Shown here piece by piece: positions 4,307-13,495 of a stretch of 23,975 nt of DNA. This DNA is from Promethearchaeota archaeon. GTDB lineage: Archaea > Asgardarchaeota > Lokiarchaeia > Sigyniarchaeales > SOKP01. The position numbers and the translations under genes were made by a program. The stretch lies in contig JBHLOI010000048.1 in NCBI GenBank assembly GCA_048940645.1, positions 1-23,975 of the forward strand, given 5' to 3'. The notes beneath the pieces are model-generated. The model ran no database searches and was not told the DNA's origin. It saw only the letters and a program-made list of their open reading frames with translations. Within the stretch, counting starts at the first letter, position 1; each line of letters opens with the position of its first letter.

Positions 4307-5041
4307 TTAACTTGAGCAAATACAATTTTCATTTTTAATTAGATCTATTTTATCAAACATAAGATTAATAAGATTAACCATTAATAATTTATTTTCCAAA
4401 TTTGGTAAACCTAACGATGTCTTAATGACCTCTAGAGCTTCTAAAGTTCCTAAAATTCCAGGAGTTACTCCAATTACGGGTAAAGGCTCTACTCCTTGAT
4501 TAATTGTTTCTGGCTCATTAAAAACACATTGATAACAGGCAGTATGTTTTGGGTCAATCGTCATTATTTGACCGAAAAAATCTTTTATTCCAGCAATTAC
4601 ACATTTCAAATTATACTTAATAGCAATTTTATTAACTAAAAACTTGGTTTTGAAATTATCGCTACAGTCAACAATAAAATCTTGATCAATAATATACTTC
4701 TTAATAGAATTTTCCTCTATATAATCCTTATATACATTGATTTTAACTTCTGAATTAAAATTGGAAAGAACTTCCTTTGCAACCCGAATTTTTTCAATAC
4801 CGATATGATTTTCATTATATAAAATTTGACGTTGTAAATTAGAAATTGAAACAATATCATTATCTATTATAGTGAGTTCTCTAATACCTGCAGCGACTAG
4901 ATAGAAAGCAAATGGTGAGCCTAAACCTCCTGCTCCGACTTGAAGTACTTTTATTCTAGATAATTTTTCTTGACCATCTTCTCCTATAAGAGGAGATAAA
5001 ATTTGACGTGAATATCTTTCTTTTTGATGTTTGGTTAACAT
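4307..5041 (-). CDS. ThiF/MoeB/HesA family (UbaA-like) E1-type adenylyltransferase
   Basis: RYSRQI, GAGGLG nucleotide-binding loop, DNDIVSISNLQRQ, DCSDN, CYQC zinc motif and C-terminal CIC. ATG at 5041 preferred; an in-frame GTG at 5050 overlaps the upstream stop. Confidence 0.9.
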   Translation of the reverse strand: MLTKHQKERYSRQILSPLIGEDGQEKLSRIKVLQVGAGGLGSPFAFYLVAAGIRELTIIDNDIVSISNLQRQILYNENHIGIEKIRVAKEVLSNFNSEVKINVYKDYIEENSIKKYIIDQDFIVDCSDNFKTKFLVNKIAIKYNLKCVIAGIKDFFGQIMTIDPKHTACYQCVFNEPETINQGVEPLPVIGVTPGILGTLEALEVIKTSLGLPNLENKLLMVNLINLMFDKIDLIKNENCICSS

Positions 5042-5042
5042 T

Positions 5043-5417
5043 TTAATCACATTTCGTATAATTTTGTAGATTTTTTAAACATTCTTCAATTTCAATGAAT
5101 ATCAACCCTAAATCTAGGTTTATATCTACAAGTGAAACAATAATTACTTCTTCATCAACGCCAAAAATAATTAGCTGGTAATCATTGAATTCAACTGTTA
5201 TATTAACTAATTTGTCAGAAAATGTTGATATAGCTGTTTCCATTGCTCCAAACATAGTTGCTGCCATAGCACCAAATTTACGCTCATCAATATTTCTTGG
5301 CAGATTTGATAAAATTGTAAGGCCATTACGATTAACTATTGCTATACCTATAATTCCTCCTACAAGTATGAGCTTATCTAATTCCTTATTAAAATTCTCG
5401 ATCGTAATTGAATTCAT
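5043..5417 (-). CDS. Roadblock/LC7 (MglB/LAMTOR-like) domain protein
   Basis: GIIGIAIVNRNGLTILSNLP...KFGAMAATMFGAMETA...LGLI pattern typical of Roadblock/LC7. Start placed at ATG 5417 (MNSIT), about 25 nt downstream of a TATA-like element, rather than 5447. Confidence 0.85.
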   Translation of the reverse strand: MNSITIENFNKELDKLILVGGIIGIAIVNRNGLTILSNLPRNIDERKFGAMAATMFGAMETAISTFSDKLVNITVEFNDYQLIIFGVDEEVIIVSLVDINLDLGLIFIEIEECLKNLQNYTKCD

Positions 5418-5432
5418 TGAAATAAAAGCAAA

Positions 5433-5444
5433 TAATATTATAAA
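5433..5444 (-). promoter_or_regulatory. Putative TATA box for a leaderless roadblock-thiF transcript
   Basis: Minus strand reads TTTATAATATAT starting about 27 nt upstream of ATG 5417, typical archaeal leaderless spacing. The AT-rich background lowers specificity. Confidence 0.4.
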
Positions 5445-5519
5445 CAATTAATAATATGTATTATAAATAATTGCATGTAAAGTTTACTTTAGGACTTGAA
5501 AATAAAAGAAAATAAGTAT

Positions 5520-6229: not shown

Positions 6230-7267
6230 TTGCAAAAAATTGGTATTTTTGATAGTGGCGTCGAGACACCTGAAGAAATTGTGATGGCTGCTGGTTTCAC
6301 CCCTTATCGATTCTTTGGTGATCCTACATTGCAACCAGAAAGAGCTAATGAGCACATACCACCAACACATTGTATTTGGACTCGAAACCTCCTTGAACAA
6401 GCAATTAGAGGATTAAATGAAAATATAGTAGGAATAATCGGGACACATGGATGTGATAGAACTAATCGAGAGTTTGATATTTGGATTGAATGCCTAAATC
6501 TAGATTTTATGTTTTTTCTAAATTCTCCACGAAAACGTGATAATCTAGCCCTAAATTTCTTTAAAAATGATCTAAAAGAGCTCATTTTACGTTTAGAAGA
6601 ATGTTTTAATATTGATATTACATCGGCAAAATTAAAAGATGCCATTATAAAGATGAATAAAATTCGAAAGTTATTGAAAAAGATCTCTGACTATAGAAAC
6701 AAATTGGTTATTAAGGGTTCAGAATTTCATGAATTAGTTAAAAGTGCTCAATTTCAAGATAAAAACCAAGTATTAGAAAGCCTTGAGCAAAAGTTAGCAG
6801 AATTTGAATCTAGAACTCCTTTTTCAGGAGATAAGGTTAAAAGGGTTTTGCTTACTGGTTCTGAAATTGATGATACTAAATTTATAAAATTTCTTGAAGA
6901 TTTAGGATTTCATATTGTTATTGATGATTTGGGTGTTGGAACCAAATATTTCTGGAATTTAGTGGACGAAAATTCAGAACCAATTGAAGCTTTGGCTAAA
7001 TACCATTTAATAAAACCAATCAATTCTATTAAATATCCCTCTTATGAGAGATTTAACATTCTTGAAAAATTAACGGAAGATTATAAAGTTGATGGTGTGA
7101 TAAATATCGCACAGAAATTTTGTGAACCTGTTTTATATGATCACCCCTATTTAAATAAAAAATTTAAAGAACTTGAGATTCCCTACTTATTCATAGAAGT
7201 TACATATAATAGAGAATCCTATTCCCAATTATCAACCAGATTTTCAGCATTTGCTGAAATAATATGA
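6230..7267 (+). CDS. 2-hydroxyacyl-CoA dehydratase / benzoyl-CoA reductase family subunit (HgdB/FldC/BcrC-like)
   Basis: PEEIVMAAG, three Fe-S Cys (HCIW, HGCD, KFCEP), RVLLTGS, VDGVI, QLSTRFSAFAE; TTG start after a GGGGAG SD-like element. Confidence 0.88.
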   Translation: MQKIGIFDSGVETPEEIVMAAGFTPYRFFGDPTLQPERANEHIPPTHCIWTRNLLEQAIRGLNENIVGIIGTHGCDRTNREFDIWIECLNLDFMFFLNSPRKRDNLALNFFKNDLKELILRLEECFNIDITSAKLKDAIIKMNKIRKLLKKISDYRNKLVIKGSEFHELVKSAQFQDKNQVLESLEQKLAEFESRTPFSGDKVKRVLLTGSEIDDTKFIKFLEDLGFHIVIDDLGVGTKYFWNLVDENSEPIEALAKYHLIKPINSIKYPSYERFNILEKLTEDYKVDGVINIAQKFCEPVLYDHPYLNKKFKELEIPYLFIEVTYNRESYSQLSTRFSAFAEII

Positions 7268-7277
7268 GGATGGTAAA

Positions 7278-8540
7278 ATGTCAAAAGAAAAAACAAAACA
7301 TAGAAAGATGTTAAATGCAACACAAGGTTTAAAAAATGTAATGGGTAGGCACTTTTTAGCAATCGAGCAAGCATTTCGAGATGGAAAACCAATTGCTTGG
7401 GCAACATCAGGTAGTCCTGTAGAACTTCTATATGCCATGGATGTACAACCTATATTACCCGAAAATTCTGCAACCATCTCAGCAGCTCAAAAATATTCTA
7501 AAAATTTCATTGAAATTGCTGAGGCAGAAGGATTTTCATATGATTTATGTTCATATTTTAAAACTAATGTAGGAGCTGTATTAAGCAATGCTGATATAAC
7601 TAAAGGAGGTACCGGAAAACCAACCTTTATGTTATCTACAGATGTCATATGTGATACGCATGTTAATTGGTTTGAAGTTCAAGCCGAAAGATTAAATGTG
7701 CCTCATTATACACTAGATATACCACATGTTGTCAGTAATACTAATAATAGGCAATACAATTACTTTAAAAAATATATTGCAGAACAACTATATGATTTTC
7801 TTGATTTCATTCAAGAAGTTACTGGTAATGAATACAATGAAGAGAGAGCTAAACAAGTCTCACAGAATTCATGGGATTTAAGTATGGTATGGCAAGATAT
7901 CTATGAATTAAGAAAGGCTGTTCCGTGTCCAATGAGTACAAGAGATACTTTTGGCGGTTTATTTCCATTGTTTACAATGCCAGGTTTGAAGGAACCTATT
8001 AAACTATATAAAAGAATGTATCGCGAAGCTAAAACACGAGTAGATAACGGTATAGGAGCACTTGAAAAGGAGGAATTCCGCCTGATGTTCGAAGGTATTC
8101 CCTTTTGGTATAACCTCAAGTTCTTTGGCATGTTAGAAAAATGGAATTCTATTATAGTTTATGAACCTTATACATATGCATTTAGTAAATATATGAACCC
8201 TAATGTTACTAAAGAAATGGTTTTAGGTCAACCTATTGAAGCTATGTCTGAATTATTGCTAAGTTTTTGGTATATATATGATCTGAAAACACGTATCAAG
8301 AAATTTGAAGAAACTGTACGAGAATGGAAGATAGATGGAGTATTATTGCATGAAAATTTATCATGTCGACCAAATTCTTGTGGATTATACGATTTAAAAC
8401 GTCATTTAATGGATGATTACGATATCCCTTGCTTAGTAATCTCTAGTGATATGAATGACCCGAGAAAAATGAATGAAACTCAAGTTATCAATCAGATAGA
8501 AAGCTTTATTGAAATTCTTCGCAAAAGAATGAAAAAATAA
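7278..8540 (+). CDS. 2-hydroxyacyl-CoA dehydratase / benzoyl-CoA reductase family subunit (HgdA/FldB/BcrB-like)
   Basis: PVELLYAMD..PEN, EGFSYDLCSY, ICD, IDGVLLH..LSCRP, DMNDPR, QIESFIE; 10 nt downstream of its partner subunit. Confidence 0.88.
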   Translation: MSKEKTKHRKMLNATQGLKNVMGRHFLAIEQAFRDGKPIAWATSGSPVELLYAMDVQPILPENSATISAAQKYSKNFIEIAEAEGFSYDLCSYFKTNVGAVLSNADITKGGTGKPTFMLSTDVICDTHVNWFEVQAERLNVPHYTLDIPHVVSNTNNRQYNYFKKYIAEQLYDFLDFIQEVTGNEYNEERAKQVSQNSWDLSMVWQDIYELRKAVPCPMSTRDTFGGLFPLFTMPGLKEPIKLYKRMYREAKTRVDNGIGALEKEEFRLMFEGIPFWYNLKFFGMLEKWNSIIVYEPYTYAFSKYMNPNVTKEMVLGQPIEAMSELLLSFWYIYDLKTRIKKFEETVREWKIDGVLLHENLSCRPNSCGLYDLKRHLMDDYDIPCLVISSDMNDPRKMNETQVINQIESFIEILRKRMKK

Positions 8541-9253: not shown

Positions 9254-9595
9254 TTAGTTTGCAATTTTAACAAGAGAATTAGGGGTTAAAATCAAATATT
9301 CATCACCAATACGTGCCATAGAACCACCATTCTCTCTTAAAAATGATTTTAAATCTTCAATTCCTCGTTTAAGTTTTGAAACGTCTACTTTTTGAAGAAG
9401 AGTTTTTACATTAATAATAAGAATTCTACGTCCTAACAATTCTTTTTTTATATCTTCAATTTGTTCTAATGATGAAAAATCATATTTCTTAATTAAGAAA
9501 CTTTGTTTTAATGAAGGTAAATCTCTTGAAAAACCCATAGTTTCCTCGGGTGAACCTAGCAAATCTTCATCAAATTTTTTCCAAAATTTACCCAA
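9254..9595 (-). CDS. sepF: Cell division protein SepF (archaeal type, FtsZ membrane anchor)
   Basis: C-terminal core IKKEL..RRILIINV..L......LKRGIEDLK......GGSMARIGDEYLILTP and an N-terminal amphipathic segment (MGKFWKKF). TTG at 9595 follows an SD-like GGAAGTGA; alternative TTG at 9613. Confidence 0.82.
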   Translation of the reverse strand: MGKFWKKFDEDLLGSPEETMGFSRDLPSLKQSFLIKKYDFSSLEQIEDIKKELLGRRILIINVKTLLQKVDVSKLKRGIEDLKSFLRENGGSMARIGDEYLILTPNSLVKIAN

Positions 9596-10011
9596 TTTAG
9601 AGATCACTTCCAAATTGACTTCTATAATAATTACGGTAGAAATGTATATAATCTTATATTTAAATTAATAAGTTATTGTGATGATAGCTTTTCAAATATA
9701 GAGAAAATACAAAATTTACCTTTTATCAACTTAATTTAGAGATATAATGTAAAATAAACCACTTTAAACAGTGTAATATGTAGATAACACCCAAATTAAG
9801 TAACTCACTATTAGCATTATAAGATTCCTTAGAATTACTCCATTAATCCTCCTAACTTTCATATTTTTTTATTTAAATATATTAAAAACCTGATTCAAGA
9901 GAATAATATCCTTATAAATATATAGTTCGCGAAATAATTATCTTGAATTTAAAGTTAAACTAGTACGTTAAAATTTTATTTTAAATAGGTAAAGTAAAAC
10001 TTGAGAATTTA

Positions 10012-10075: not shown

Positions 10076-10537
10076 ATGAACGAAAAAGTTATAATTGGTA
10101 ACAAGGGTTTAATTCGGGCAGAATTCAATTTCTGGGTGGGTCGATATCTTGATAAATTTTATGATAATCTCGAAAATAAGAAAATCGTTGGAAATAAATG
10201 CCCAAAATGCGGCGATGTGTTTGTACCTCCAAGAAAAGTATGTGGAAAGTGTAATGGAGTTATTACTTTTGAAGAAAATTGGGTTAATTTACCTGAAACG
10301 GGAACATTACTGAATTATACAATAACACCATATAAAGTAAATGATAGAGCATTTAGGAAAGTGAAAAAGCCTCAAAAAATTGGGATGATTCAAATTGATG
10401 GAAGCGATACTGCTATTGTTTACCGACTATTAGACTTAGAACCAAATGAGATCAAATTAGGGATGAAATTAAAGGTTGAATGGGAGGAAAAAACAAAAGG
10501 AGACCCTTCAGATATAAAGGGTTTCACAAAGCAATAG
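10076..10537 (+). CDS. DUF35 protein (Zn-ribbon plus OB-fold, ChsH2-like acyl-CoA-binding scaffold)
   Basis: KIVGNKCPKCG.VFVPPRKVCGKC, WV.L.ETGTL..YT, IQIDGSDT, IKLGMKLKVEW. Confidence 0.93.
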   Translation: MNEKVIIGNKGLIRAEFNFWVGRYLDKFYDNLENKKIVGNKCPKCGDVFVPPRKVCGKCNGVITFEENWVNLPETGTLLNYTITPYKVNDRAFRKVKKPQKIGMIQIDGSDTAIVYRLLDLEPNEIKLGMKLKVEWEEKTKGDPSDIKGFTKQ

Positions 10538-10543
10538 AGGGGG

Positions 10544-11695
10544 TTGAAATCAATGCAGAAAGTTGGTATTGTTGGATATAATCAAGTAAAATTATACTCA
10601 GATGCTAATTATGGTAGATATGAGATGATTTTTGAGGCTGTACGAGGTGCTCTAGACAGCGTAGGTCTGAAAAAGAAAGATATATCGACTGTAGTTTCGG
10701 CTACTAATGACTATTATGATGGTCGAACAATCTCAAATGCATTAACTGTAGAGCCTGGAGGAGGATACTTAACTGATGAATCCAAGGTTGAAATGGACGG
10801 TGCTCATGCTGTATTATATGGATTAATGCGGATTTTATCCGGTAATCATAGTTTGGCAGTTGTATGGGGTGGGAGTATGGCATCCTGTTTTCCATACCAT
10901 ACTGCTCGATTATATGAAACAGATCCTATATGGGAGCGTCCATTAGCTTATGTAAATGATATAAGTTCTTCCGGCTTTCAGATGAGAGCTTATATGGAAA
11001 AGTTTGGGGTAAGTGCTGAAGATATTGCTAAAATCGCTGTTAAAAATAGAAAAAACGCTGCAAAAAACCAATTAGCTTTAGTAGAAGCTCAAAATCCAAA
11101 CTTAACAATTAAAGATGTTTTAGAATCTGAGATTTATGCTGATCCGGTAACAGAACTAATGGTAGCTCAACCTTGCGATGGTGTGGCAGCTTTATTATTA
11201 GCACCAGAAAAGCAAGCACTAAAGATCACAGATAATCCAGTTTGGATTATAGGTGTGGGTTATAATCAAGAAACTTATTATCTTGGAGAAAGAGACTTAT
11301 CTATTAGTAAATCCATGGAATTAGCAAGTAAAATGGCTTTTAATGCCGCTGGAGTCAAAGATCCTATAAATGAAATTGACGTGGCTGAGTTATTTGAAGC
11401 TTATGCTCACGAAGAATTAATACTTAGCGAAGCTTTAGGATTTGCTGAAAAAGGTAAAGGAACAACTTTAAACTCTGAAATTGATGGTGATATGCCCATT
11501 AATCCGTCTGGAGGCGCTTTGGGGGGAAATCCACCTTGTGCAACTGGTTTAATAAGAATTATTGAGGCTGTTAAACAACTAAGAGGGGAGGCAAGTGGCT
11601 ATCAGGTCAAAGGTGCTAAAAAAGCTATTGCCTCGGGTCAAATAGGTTTATGCGCCCAAAACAATATATTGTATGTATTAGAAGGAGGTAATTAA
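10544..11695 (+). CDS. Thiolase-fold (SCP-x type) protein, Ltp4-like putative aldolase subunit
   Basis: DYYDGR...ESKVEMDGAHA, where the thiolase nucleophile Cys position is replaced, resembling the ESHVEMDAAWA segment I recall from mycobacterial Ltp4. Also KNRKNA, DGVAAL, INPSGG. Confidence 0.82.
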   Translation: MKSMQKVGIVGYNQVKLYSDANYGRYEMIFEAVRGALDSVGLKKKDISTVVSATNDYYDGRTISNALTVEPGGGYLTDESKVEMDGAHAVLYGLMRILSGNHSLAVVWGGSMASCFPYHTARLYETDPIWERPLAYVNDISSSGFQMRAYMEKFGVSAEDIAKIAVKNRKNAAKNQLALVEAQNPNLTIKDVLESEIYADPVTELMVAQPCDGVAALLLAPEKQALKITDNPVWIIGVGYNQETYYLGERDLSISKSMELASKMAFNAAGVKDPINEIDVAELFEAYAHEELILSEALGFAEKGKGTTLNSEIDGDMPINPSGGALGGNPPCATGLIRIIEAVKQLRGEASGYQVKGAKKAIASGQIGLCAQNNILYVLEGGN

Positions 11696-11697
11696 AA

Positions 11698-12945
11698 ATG
11701 GGAAGACAAGTTTGTGTTGCGGGTGCAGGTTTTAGTGAGCATGCATCAAAGCGTTCAGATGTAAACATGCCGGAACTAGTAAATGAAGCAATAAAAGATT
11801 GCCTAAAAAGAGTTCCAGGTCTTGATATTAAAGATATTGATGCTTTTGTAAATGGGAATATGCCTGCGTTTGAAGGATCAAATATTCCTGAATTATGGAT
11901 GACAGATTGGATGGGTGCCAGAAATAAACCATTACTGCGAGTCACGACAGGAGGTACTACAGGTGGTTCGGTAGCTATTGCTGGATATTACTCTGTTGCT
12001 GCTGGGATACCCGGTATTGATACTGTGTTAGCTATCGCTTTCGAACAGCAATCTCAAGGTGATACAAGTGTTGGACTTGCTAGTGTAGCTTATGGAGAAA
12101 TATCAGTCATGAACTCACTAGGTATTCCTTATGATCAATTAACACTCCTTTTATCCGGTGGTGCTGCTATAGGAATTGCTTCTTATCAAGCTACTAATTA
12201 TATGCGTAAAAGTAAGATTACTGAAGAAGATTTAGCAAGAGTTGTTGTTCAAAATAGACATAATGCAGCAAAAACATGGTGGGCTCATCTTAAAATGCCC
12301 GATCTTACAATTGAGGATGTTTTAGATACACCCTATATTTCATATCCTTTAAGATATGGAATGGTTTGTCCAGCATCCGATGGAGCATGCGCAATGCTAT
12401 TTACAACCGAAGAAAAAGCGAAAGATATATGTGACATTCCCGTTTATGTAAATGGAGTAGGTAGTGTAGCAAATGAGACAGCTCTCATTGGCTATGGGGG
12501 GAGTGGATCTGGTCAATTAGACCTTTCTGAACAATTAGGAGCTCAAAGAACTTCCGAAATAGCTTTTAAACAAGCAGGAATTCTTTTTCCAAGAAAACAA
12601 ATTGATTATGCCGAAGTTTATTCACCATTTCCTAACCAAGAACTTATGTGGGTCGAAAAATTGGGTCTATTTGAAGAAAATACGGCGCCAAAAATGTATA
12701 AAACTGGAGTTACTGCTTTAAATGGCGAATTACCAATCAACTGTTCGGGAGGAGTTAATTCTACAAATGCTATAGGAGCCTCAGCATTAGAAAGACCTGC
12801 TGAAGCGGCTTTACAAATTATGGGAACGGCTAGCAATCAAGTCCCTAAAACTGTACATACATCATTGGGACATGGATGGGGAGGTTATGTCAATTTGGTA
12901 ACAATGATGGTTATGGCTGATGAACCAGCGAGAAAATTTAAATAA
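11698..12945 (+). CDS. Thiolase-fold (SCP-x type) protein, Ltp3-like putative aldolase subunit
   Basis: KRSDVNMPELV.EAI, FEG..IPELWM.D.MGA.NKPLLRV.TGG..GGS, AFEQQS, WAHL.MPDLT, CPASDGACA, AEVYSPF, SGGV.STNAIGAS, GHGWGG; co-linear with actinobacterial Ltp3 as I recall it. GGAGGT SD. Confidence 0.85.
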   Translation: MGRQVCVAGAGFSEHASKRSDVNMPELVNEAIKDCLKRVPGLDIKDIDAFVNGNMPAFEGSNIPELWMTDWMGARNKPLLRVTTGGTTGGSVAIAGYYSVAAGIPGIDTVLAIAFEQQSQGDTSVGLASVAYGEISVMNSLGIPYDQLTLLLSGGAAIGIASYQATNYMRKSKITEEDLARVVVQNRHNAAKTWWAHLKMPDLTIEDVLDTPYISYPLRYGMVCPASDGACAMLFTTEEKAKDICDIPVYVNGVGSVANETALIGYGGSGSGQLDLSEQLGAQRTSEIAFKQAGILFPRKQIDYAEVYSPFPNQELMWVEKLGLFEENTAPKMYKTGVTALNGELPINCSGGVNSTNAIGASALERPAEAALQIMGTASNQVPKTVHTSLGHGWGGYVNLVTMMVMADEPARKFK

Positions 12946-12964
12946 AAAAAGGAGGTAGTAAAAA

Positions 12965-13495
12965 TTGTCTAAAAGAACGTTAAGGAAATCAATGGACTAT
13001 ATTAAAAAAGAATATGTTAGAACAAGGACTATGCCAGCAAGCTGGTATTTATCCAGTTATAAATTTAAATTTAATATTACTCATATGACACCATTTCTTG
13101 ATAAATTAAAGCAGAAAAAGTTGGTTGGGTTGCAGTGCTCAAGTTGTAATAGAATTTATTTTCCACCACGACAAATTTGTGGCAAGTGCCTTGTGAAACC
13201 TGATAGGTGGGTTGATTTGCGAGAAACTGGGAGAGTTGCCTCTTTCACTGCGACTTATTTAAAAGATCCAGAAACTGGCGAAGTTATAGAACGACCTATT
13301 GTGTGTGCCCAATTAGATGGAGCAGATACTTCTTACCCAGCACAATTGGATCCTGATGTTGAATTTAAGGATACATACATTGGTATGCCCATAAAGGTTC
13401 ATTGGGCAGATGATATTAAGGGTGGACTAATGGATATCGAATATTATGATCCTATTGAAGACAACGCTAAAGATTTACAATCTAAAGAAGATTAA
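12965..13495 (+). CDS. DUF35 protein (Zn-ribbon plus OB-fold)
   Basis: KLVGLQCSSC.RIYFPPRQICGKC, WVDL.ETG.V.SFT, QLDGADT, IGMPIKVHW; GGAGGT SD before the TTG start. Confidence 0.93.
   Translation: MSKRTLRKSMDYIKKEYVRTRTMPASWYLSSYKFKFNITHMTPFLDKLKQKKLVGLQCSSCNRIYFPPRQICGKCLVKPDRWVDLRETGRVASFTATYLKDPETGEVIERPIVCAQLDGADTSYPAQLDPDVEFKDTYIGMPIKVHWADDIKGGLMDIEYYDPIEDNAKDLQSKED

Follow-up and report, generated by a model that had tools for sequence, protein, structure and literature searches.

The locus at 10076-13495 of the window (the whole 23,975-nucleotide stretch of DNA analyzed here) raises the question of which reaction, if any, two adjacent thiolase-fold proteins without a nucleophilic cysteine might catalyze in the company of two DUF35 proteins. 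The four genes lie on the forward strand in the order DUF35, thiolase-like alpha, thiolase-like beta, DUF35 (Table 1), with intergenic gaps of 6, 2 and 19 nt by ORF coordinates and with Shine-Dalgarno-like GGAGG motifs upstream of beta and of DUF35b. The first-pass annotation had described tight spacing with Shine-Dalgarno sites, and this stands apart from the start of alpha: because homologs of alpha are 380 aa long, as when read from the ATG at 10553, this codon is probably the true start, and the gap to DUF35a is then 15 nt. The GGGGG located 8 nt ahead of this ATG overlaps the TTG at 10544. Neighboring genes in the window encode SepF, a DUF4184 protein, an HgdAB-like protein, an amylase and a nitroreductase; both here and elsewhere in the genus it is flanked by sepF on one side and by nitroreductase or amylase genes on the other, none of them a pathway partner.

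Table 1. Coordinates and features of the four cassette genes within the window.
Gene	Coordinates	Strand	Length	Features
DUF35a	10076..10537	+	153 aa	zinc ribbon (C-x2-C ... C-x2-C) + OB fold
alpha	10544..11695	+	383 aa (ORF)	Cys-less SCP2-type thiolase-fold protein, Ltp4 superclade
beta	11698..12945	+	415 aa	Cys-less thiolase-fold protein, Ltp3 superclade
DUF35b	12965..13495	+	176 aa, TTG start behind GGAGG	zinc ribbon + OB fold

The arrangement is more than a chance neighborhood, since the four genes recur together and in this order in several Asgard families while their flanks change. Alpha and beta are always adjacent and accompanied by two DUF35 units, in Asgard archaea, other archaea and many (anaerobic) bacteria; DUF35a is kept upstream of alpha in all cassettes of the C99 type, DUF35b is kept downstream of beta, and a paralog of the cassette is present on contig C52 of the same genome. 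Pfam searches assigned the first and fourth gene products a zinc ribbon and OB fold of the ChsH2/DUF35 type. For DUF35a both PF12172 and PF01796 scored above cut-off, while DUF35b gave 30.8 bits for PF12172 and 18.4 bits for PF01796, the latter under its cut-off of 27.1 bits; each translation contains the four cysteines of a Cys4 ribbon ahead of the OB fold, and DUF35b, despite its weaker OB-fold match, can be aligned to either half of the tandem DUF35 of actinobacteria. The gene layout confirms the earlier view that the two units are separate genes and not one tandem fusion. In this they differ from the Rv3521-type protein, as they also do in having four cysteines each, whereas the N-terminal half of the actinobacterial tandem DUF35 lacks zinc ligands (three fusions examined). 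DUF35a is predicted to be the docking partner of one thiolase-fold subunit, and DUF35b a second docking partner.

The two central genes each encode Thiolase_N and Thiolase_C_1 domains (Pfam; 93.8 bits for Thiolase_C_1 of alpha), and the CoA-binding motifs N-x-S-G-G and K-N-x-x-N are retained together with the fold. An AF2 model of beta (pLDDT 89) adopts the thiolase fold, with Foldseek TM scores of 0.77-0.85 to archaeal and SCP2 thiolases; thiolases and the archaeal protein ST0096 rank above Ltp2 and Sal among its structural neighbors. C5 and C28, true thiolases encoded by the same genome, keep the nucleophilic Cys, HDCF and GHP. Aligning alpha and beta with them bore out the initial observation that both proteins lack the nucleophile, and showed that the Cys of HDCF and the His of GHP are likewise missing from alpha and beta. 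The nucleophile loop of alpha is three residues shorter and reads K-V-E-M-D-G (motif ESKVEMDG), with F-E-A-Y replacing HDCF and G-N-P replacing GHP. At the nucleophile site of beta there is a Gly (T-T-G-G-T-T-G-G, within RVTTGGTTGG), Y-S-P-F stands at HDCF, and T-N-A with Asn357 stands at GHP; Tyr308, the Tyr of AEVYSPF, occupies the position of the HDCF His, as had been read from the translation. This combination of Gly, Tyr and Asn is retained across most of the beta/Ltp3 superclade, and the equivalent positions vary in the alpha/Ltp4 superclade (FEAY, SERY, HAPF, YDAF and others).

Neither alpha nor beta can be a thiolase, because the complex has no cysteine with which to form an acyl-enzyme. 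That it should nonetheless be a true thiolase, using an unconventional nucleophile or one borrowed from a partner, would accord with the preserved fold and CoA-binding motifs and with the JGI name, but is very improbable: neither subunit has a Cys or Ser aligned with the nucleophile, HDCF and GHP are lost, and the Cys of N-C-S-G-G in beta, the only one near the site, is not conserved among orthologs. Database names for these proteins are hypothetical, thiolase-domain or, from JGI, ‘acetyl-CoA C-acetyltransferase’, much as the first-pass annotation had anticipated in expecting automatic labeling as ‘acetyl-CoA acetyltransferase’.

The cassette is distantly related to the bacterial Ltp4/Ltp3 aldol-lyase set for sterol side chains, with which it shares an adjacent Cys-less pair, Ltp4-like then Ltp3-like, and two DUF35 units. 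Ltp3 and Ltp4 are described as aldol-lyases (PMC6273163, PMC10832528) and, together with the tandem DUF35 of the Rv3521 type, are genetically required for the degradation of C24-branched sterol side chains (Wilbrink et al., 2012, as reported in PMC6273163 and PMC10832528); the literature searched yielded no in vitro work on Ltp3 or Ltp4 themselves. Beta shares 36-40% identity with Ltp3-type proteins and alpha about 29% with Ltp4. Among NCBIfam models, the best match of beta is NF006180 (PRK08313) at 357.5 bits, under the cut-off of 514, and that of alpha is PRK06065 at 219 bits, with NF005924 (PRK07937) fourth-best at 189.7 bits against a cut-off of 419; the Ltp3-type protein of Tsukamurella, encoded beside an EchA19 equivalog, reaches 734 bits and its Ltp4-type protein 593 bits. 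The match to Ltp4 and Ltp3, earlier claimed motif by motif, extends to the three catalytic sites of beta (Gly / Y-S-P-F / T-N-A vs Gly / Y-V-P-F / S-N-P in Ltp3, or Gly / Y-x-P-F / [ST]-N-[PA] overall), to the shortened E-S-x-V-E-M-D loop and G-N-P of alpha, and to the position of alpha upstream of the Ltp3-like gene, but not to membership of the two families, since both scores fall below the cut-offs. Moreover, the loop occurs throughout the alpha superclade and is not peculiar to Ltp4, and alpha has F-E-A-Y where Ltp4 has H-A-P-F.

Tree inference agrees with this placement. Beta belongs to the superclade of Ltp3 and alpha to that of Ltp4, each outside the Ltp3 or Ltp4 clade proper, and both are apart from the true thiolases; Ltp2 groups with the true thiolases, in a different clade from alpha and beta. 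The clade containing beta consists of Asgard sequences and one Actinomycetota MAG cluster, is separate from the actinobacterial Ltp3 clade, and was recovered as its sister (SH-aLRT 95) in a 73-row C20 tree and as part of a polytomy in a 138-row tree. Alpha forms a clade of its own.

Kinship of this kind invites the reading put forward in the first-pass annotation, in which the cassette debranches the side chains of sterols or hopanoids, the task of Ltp3/Ltp4 on C24-alkyl sterols after carboxylation and hydration. Its appeal lies in the part-for-part likeness to the Rv3521-type / Ltp4 / Ltp3 locus of Tsukamurella, Nocardia and S. clavuligerus and in Ltp3 being nearest to beta in the C20 tree; it is nevertheless highly unlikely. 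Genuine Ltp3 and Ltp4 pass the cut-offs that alpha and beta miss, and the latter branch separately. No carboxyltransferase (Carboxyl_trans) gene was found in the 89.6%-complete genome, nor was a hydratase or steroid gene found linked to the cassette, and the EchA19, FadD19, P450 and steroid thiolase context of the Tsukamurella locus is absent, as is a KstR-type cluster among the window neighbors. The host, a Loki-type archaeon, is anaerobic, and the cassette is widespread in anaerobes not known as steroid degraders. The substrate is almost certainly not a sterol.

While that substrate falls away, the aldolase part of the earlier reading survives. With moderate confidence, we propose that the cassette encodes an acyl-CoA aldolase that is heterotetrameric and Cys-independent, in which beta is the catalytic subunit and alpha its partner, and which breaks or forms a C-C bond of a hydroxyacyl-CoA. 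Retro-aldol chemistry appears the best inference because of the conserved Tyr308, whose counterpart in Nocardia Ltp2 is the Tyr of Y-D-H-F. In TcLtp2 (YDHF) and CtSal (YDCY), two DUF35-bound aldolases that have the thiolase fold but no nucleophilic Cys, the Tyr in the first position of the HDCF motif has been proven to act as the catalytic base (PMC12329534). Like beta, these steroid side-chain retro-aldolases (TcLtp2-ChsH2, PDB 6OK1; CtSal-Shy, PDB 9MYR) have an SCP2-thiolase fold with Gly at the site of the nucleophilic Cys, and each thiolase-fold subunit has a DUF35 partner, as is predicted for the cassette. They differ in being homodimers, where an alpha-beta heterodimer is predicted from the genes here, and in having DUF35 fused to a MaoC hydratase. 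Neither the catalytic acid Tyr344 of Ltp2 (at the GHP position) nor Cys304 of Sal (in YDCY) is conserved in beta, and because Asn357 and Pro310 stand at these acid positions the Ltp2/Sal mechanism cannot be transferred one-to-one.

In the proposed aldolase, the four proteins would form one complex, an alpha-beta heterodimer with one DUF35 docked on each side (DUF35a-alpha-beta-DUF35b), and would interconvert a 3-hydroxyacyl-CoA with acetyl-CoA (or propionyl-CoA) and an aldehyde or ketone. Tyr308 of beta would take the proton from the beta-hydroxyl, while Asn357 and backbone amides would hold the thioester enolate. Alpha is predicted to be non-catalytic, because its equivalent positions drift freely, and may serve to shape the substrate pocket.

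It is fairly unlikely that the complex performs other chemistry (decarboxylation, hydrolysis, acyl transfer or isomerization) or is a non-catalytic assembly for CoA-ester binding or scaffolding. The only activity shown by TbSLP, another relative that lacks the Cys, is a very slow decarboxylation of malonyl-CoA (PMC12329534), and the loss from beta of the acid residues of Ltp2 and Sal points the same way. The best sequence and structure match of beta in the PDB is ST0096 of Sulfolobus tokodaii (PDB 4YZO; about 29% identity), a thiolase-like protein without assigned function that also lacks Cys at the nucleophile position but, unlike beta, keeps the His of HD.. and of GHP. DUF35 proteins also act as scaffolds in the thiolase/HMGCS, PhlABC and archaeal fatty-acid synthase complexes. 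In the archaeal thiolase-HMGCS-DUF35 complex (PDB 6ET9) and the S. acidocaldarius KT/DUF35 fatty-acid synthase complex, a DUF35 gene adjoins an SCP2-type thiolase-fold gene as in the cassette, but these enzymes keep the catalytic Cys, are Claisen condensing or thiolytic, and form homodimers with one kind of DUF35; several ketothiolase/DUF35 pairs have been noted in Asgard genomes (bioRxiv 10.1101/2024.07.05.601840). Against a non-aldolase function, Tyr308, Asn357 and the CoA-binding loops of beta are strongly conserved over a wide phylogenetic distance, which argues for catalysis, and the only relatives with a genetic phenotype have been placed at a C-C cleavage step.

Gene neighborhoods in related Loki genomes fit the aldolase, comprising enzymes that would make 3-hydroxyacyl-CoA (acyl-CoA ligase, ACAD, crotonase) and enzymes that handle aldehydes (a threonine-aldolase-like PLP enzyme, Fe- and Zn-ADH, aldehyde:ferredoxin oxidoreductase), as well as BKACE. 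Two more specific versions of the aldolase name a substrate. In one, distinctly unlikely on present evidence, isoprenoid acids from archaeal lipid or phytol chains would supply a tertiary 3-hydroxy-3-methylacyl-CoA, whose retro-aldol cleavage to a methyl ketone and acetyl-CoA would bypass, without oxygen, the obstacle that a beta-methyl group poses to beta-oxidation. Ltp2 cleaves a tertiary alcohol (PMC12329534), the frequently neighboring BKACE genes act on beta-keto acids, and the neighbors of the cassette in several related genomes, or of the C52 paralog in the source genome, include a long-chain-type acyl-CoA ligase, a crotonase, a flavoprotein of the CrtI/phytoene-desaturase family, an FNR-like reductase and lipid carriers of the SCP2 type. 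The isoprenoid idea of the first-pass annotation gains loose hints from other genomes (CrtI-like, SCP2), but these neighbors are generic and absent from the window, the CrtI-family matches are far under cut-offs, no ketone-processing genes were identified, and the aldehyde-handling neighbors (ADH, AOR) point to a secondary and not a tertiary alcohol.

The other version, which we regard as improbable, is aldehyde assimilation, with acetyl-CoA joined to an aldehyde freed from beta-hydroxy amino acids by the PLP enzyme (e.g., acetaldehyde from threonine) to give a 3-hydroxyacyl-CoA for butyrate-type fermentation. This GntG/low-specificity threonine-aldolase-type enzyme (NF041359, 359 bits, cut-off 230) adjoins the cassette in 12 of the 39 named C99-type loci in two arrangements, either convergent downstream or directly upstream on the same strand. 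Cassette and PLP enzyme occur together in 55 genomes of family f1 (cassette alone in 33, PLP enzyme alone in 9, neither in 24), these being related genomes and not independent counts. For the downstream steps the source genome encodes at least six 3-hydroxyacyl-CoA dehydrogenases and several ACADs. However, the PLP gene is the first in an operon for an amino-acid ABC transporter, so that in genus g2 it may adjoin the cassette through inherited synteny, and the enzyme was not found in the source genome or in half of its genus, where the cassette is kept.

The cassette proteins belong to a large branch of the thiolase superfamily of which only Ltp3 and Ltp4 have been studied, and these solely by genetics; counted as thiolases, they inflate predictions of beta-oxidation and butyrate pathways in Asgard archaea. 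Assigning their reaction would mend a recurrent mis-annotation, would explain for the first time how a heteromeric thiolase-fold aldolase works, and could show what anaerobic archaea do with acyl-CoAs that are branched or yield aldehydes. A decidedly tentative, rather unlikely extension is that the cassette provides Asgard archaea and other sediment anaerobes with a widespread, oxygen-independent route past ordinary beta-oxidation, in which a Cys-free heterotetramer would cleave isoprenoid tertiary 3-hydroxy-3-methylacyl-CoAs or, in reverse, would join fermentation aldehydes onto acetyl-CoA.

The cassette under study lies in an assembly of 3.83 Mb (30% G+C, 89.6% complete), and the labels of its close homologues are those of Promethearchaeota or Lokiarchaeota MAGs. 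Pfam assigns a ChsH2-type zinc ribbon with an OB fold (DUF35) to the first and fourth genes and Thiolase_N with Thiolase_C_1 to the second and third (alpha and beta), and the translations of both DUF35 proteins carry a full C-x2-C ... C-x2-C ribbon. A GGAGG box precedes both beta and DUF35b. For alpha, a GGGGG that overlaps the TTG at 10544 stands 8 nt 5' of an ATG at 10553; since the homologues are 380 aa long, the ATG is the likelier start. The four-gene arrangement read in the first-pass annotation, a thiolase-fold pair between two DUF35 genes, is confirmed by the ORFs, the domains and the motif alignment.

Coordinates of the cassette and of the other loci discussed
Feature	Sequence	Positions	Strand	Source
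Cassette, four co-directional ORFs	window	10076-13495	+	ORF listing
Alpha	window	10544-11695	+	
Beta	window	11698-12945	+	
Roadblock/LC7 gene, overlapping start of ThiF/E1-like gene	window	4307-5447		Pfam
Two adjoining 2-hydroxyglutaryl-CoA-dehydratase D-component genes (HgdA/B-like)	window	6230-8540		
SepF gene	window	9254-9613		
Acyl-CoA island (L019, L020)	source genome, C52	100052-120316		
Thiolase-like/DUF35/SCP2-like triple (L021)	source genome, C23	2371-4487		
Same triple	L036	15768-17895		
Thiolase-like gene next to ACAD	source genome, C126	63242-64465		
True thiolase and DUF35 (L022)	source genome, C5	3941-7453		
GntG/low-specificity threonine-aldolase-type PLP gene	L052 (genus g2)	11865-12920		
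Actinobacterial tandem DUF35	L041	6990-7919		
Actinobacterial tandem DUF35	L043	3920-4942		
Actinobacterial tandem DUF35	L042	4931-5950		

The ten thiolase-fold ORFs of the source genome were aligned with Ltp3-, Ltp4- and Ltp2-type proteins from Tsukamurella, S. clavuligerus and Nocardia.

Residues at the three active-site positions of the alignment
Protein	Nucleophile site	HDCF position	GHP position
True thiolases of source genome (C5, C28)	Cys	H-D-C-F	G-H-P
Beta	Gly	Y-S-P-F	T-N-A
Ltp3 types	Gly	Y-V-P-F	S-N-P
Alpha	loop 3 residues shorter (K-V-E-M-D-G)	F-E-A-Y	G-N-P
Ltp4 types	short loop as in alpha (H-V-E-M-D-A)	H-A-P-F	G-N-P or A-[HN]-P
Ltp2		Y-D-H-F	Tyr

The first Tyr of the motif acts as catalytic base in both Ltp2 and Sal, whose acids differ: Ltp2 uses the second Tyr and Sal the Cys of the motif (PMC12329534); judged by these residues, beta has the base Tyr and neither of the known acids. 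Across about 60 members of the superclade that unites beta and Ltp3, the Gly, Tyr and Asn are mostly kept, whereas the alpha/Ltp4 superclade (about 40 members compared) shows free variation at the HDCF and GHP positions and conserves only the short acidic loop, which suggests that beta is the catalytic subunit and alpha its partner. We lean towards a Cys-independent aldol or retro-aldol reaction with catalysis by beta, a reading in which we infer both mechanism and substrate.

Kinship to Ltp3 and Ltp4 was assessed with family models and trees. The nearest NCBIfam model to beta is NF006180 (357 bits against a cut-off of 514), and alpha is matched about equally by several models, among which NF005924 (cut-off 419) gives 190 bits. 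As a control we used two thiolase-domain proteins from one Tsukamurella locus, which also encodes an EchA19 equivalog, an acyl-CoA ligase, an F420 LLM oxidoreductase, a P450 and a steroid thiolase; one scores 734 bits against NF006180 and the other 593 bits against NF005924, which indicates that these models stand for Ltp3 and Ltp4, and that the archaeal beta and alpha are therefore non-members. Pairwise identity is 36-40% between beta and Ltp3 and about 29% between alpha and Ltp4. Both trees (138 rows, LG+G4; 73 rows, LG+C20 PMSF, a quick C20 tree) gave three groups: a beta superclade including Ltp3, an alpha superclade including Ltp4, and the true thiolases together with Ltp2 and other single thiolase/DUF35 types. 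In the 73-row tree the beta clade of the window is sister to Ltp3 (SH-aLRT 95); the 138-row tree leaves its position unresolved. The proposal of an Ltp4/Ltp3-like, non-thiolase pair, probably an aldolase with two DUF35 partners, is hence upheld by trees and motifs as regards kinship but not as regards family membership, given the scores below the cut-offs. AF2 modelled beta with confidence (pLDDT 89), and the best structural matches are ST0096 (4YZO), a Pyrococcus thiolase and the archaeal thiolase of 6ET9, with Ltp2 and Sal ranked lower; no Ltp3/Ltp4-type structure was seen in this search, and a literature search for in vitro work on Ltp3/Ltp4 returned genetic statements only.

In the actinobacterial tandem DUF35 proteins the N-terminal half is devoid of zinc-ribbon cysteines, and the number left in the C-terminal half is four for S. 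clavuligerus, three for Tsukamurella and zero for Nocardia; the archaeal DUF35a and DUF35b each retain all four. A one-to-one correspondence of DUF35a and DUF35b with the N- and C-terminal halves was given up, because either half gives a similar BLAST score.

Sterol or hopanoid side chains, suggested earlier as substrates, are unsupported: a search of the source genome, at its 89.6% completeness, gave no Carboxyl_trans domain, its three MaoC genes all lie away from the cassette, and neither these checks nor gene context gave a link between cassette and steroids. The idea that the aldolase stands in for 3-hydroxyacyl-CoA dehydrogenase plus thiolase was likewise rejected, since the genome has at least six 3HCDH genes as well as true thiolases.

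Within the genus of the window the cassette is flanked by sepF and by nitroreductase or amylase genes. In other Loki genera the recurrent neighbours include a GntG/threonine-aldolase-type PLP gene, no more than two ORFs away from the cassette at 12 of 39 loci and in two arrangements, BKACE (nine loci) and a long-chain-type acyl-CoA ligase (seven loci); ACAD, crotonase, NMO-type and CrtI-family flavoproteins, FNR-like reductase, SCP2, Fe- and Zn-ADH and aldehyde:ferredoxin oxidoreductase also recur. Where the PLP gene adjoins the cassette (L052 and its equivalents, L084, L087), DUF362 and a polar amino-acid ABC transporter follow it. Of the genomes of the family, 55 have both cassette and PLP enzyme, 33 only the cassette, nine only the PLP enzyme and 24 neither, an association inflated by relatedness; the PLP gene was not found in the source genome. 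The upstream HgdA/B-like pair, for which the window has no activator gene, was considered as a pathway partner and taken as synteny: sepF and other genes separate it from the cassette, and the linkage, present in the genus of the window and in one neighbouring genus, is lost elsewhere. The Roadblock/LC7 and ThiF/E1-like pair, together with SepF, is consistent with an Asgard origin.

Three modules of two thiolase-fold and two DUF35 genes are present in the source genome, namely the window cassette and two paralogues on contig C52 with the order T-T-D-D (T, thiolase-fold; D, DUF35), in addition to single thiolase-fold/DUF35 pairs. The C52 island further contains two BKACE genes, one of which comes nearest to 3,5-dioxohexanoate:acetyl-CoA acetone transferase with 352 bits, short of the cut-off. 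It also has an F420-type LLM oxidoreductase, a crotonase and an ACAD, and a block of acyl-CoA ligase, crotonase, CrtI-family flavoprotein, FNR-like reductase, SCP2 and Fe-ADH that directly adjoins the window-type cassette in other Loki genomes. A different Cys-less type, grouping with the true-thiolase clade, is found in the conserved triple with DUF35 and a 122-aa SCP2-like protein; it reads A-T-G-G-A-T-G-G at the nucleophile loop and retains H-D-A-F and G-H-A. The C126 protein, which has no neighbouring DUF35, carries Pro at the nucleophile position (K-N-G-P-A-S-G-G) and retains H-D-A-F and G-H-P. The C5 locus, with a 392-aa gene on one side and a MaoC dehydratase on the other, resembles in layout the thiolase/HMGCS/DUF35 complex and the archaeal KT/DUF35/MaoC fatty-acid synthase complex.

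A whole-library search placed beta in a single 50%-identity cluster, with the next relatives, at 45-47% identity, in Actinomycetota MAGs and then in Dehalococcoidia and Streptomyces. Matches of 82-92% were not taken as unusual conservation because many MAGs come from the same genera; identity drops to 68-73% between members of the family and to about 45% beyond it. Of 121 genomes sampled from the family, 88 have a beta orthologue (at least 68% identity); none was found in genus g3 (0/4) or in several near-complete genomes, so that the cassette is accessory; its four genes move as a unit, with flanks that differ between genomes. A scan of named species genomes showed that the D-a-b-D or a-b-D-D layout (a, alpha; b, beta) is widespread, its hosts including Sigyn-, Jord-, Frey- and Hadarchaeota and Thermoproteota among the Archaea, and Actinomycetota, Dehalococcoidia, Deltaproteobacteria, Acidobacteria and Syntrophomonadaceae among the Bacteria. 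The window cassette is a further example of this layout rather than a new kind.
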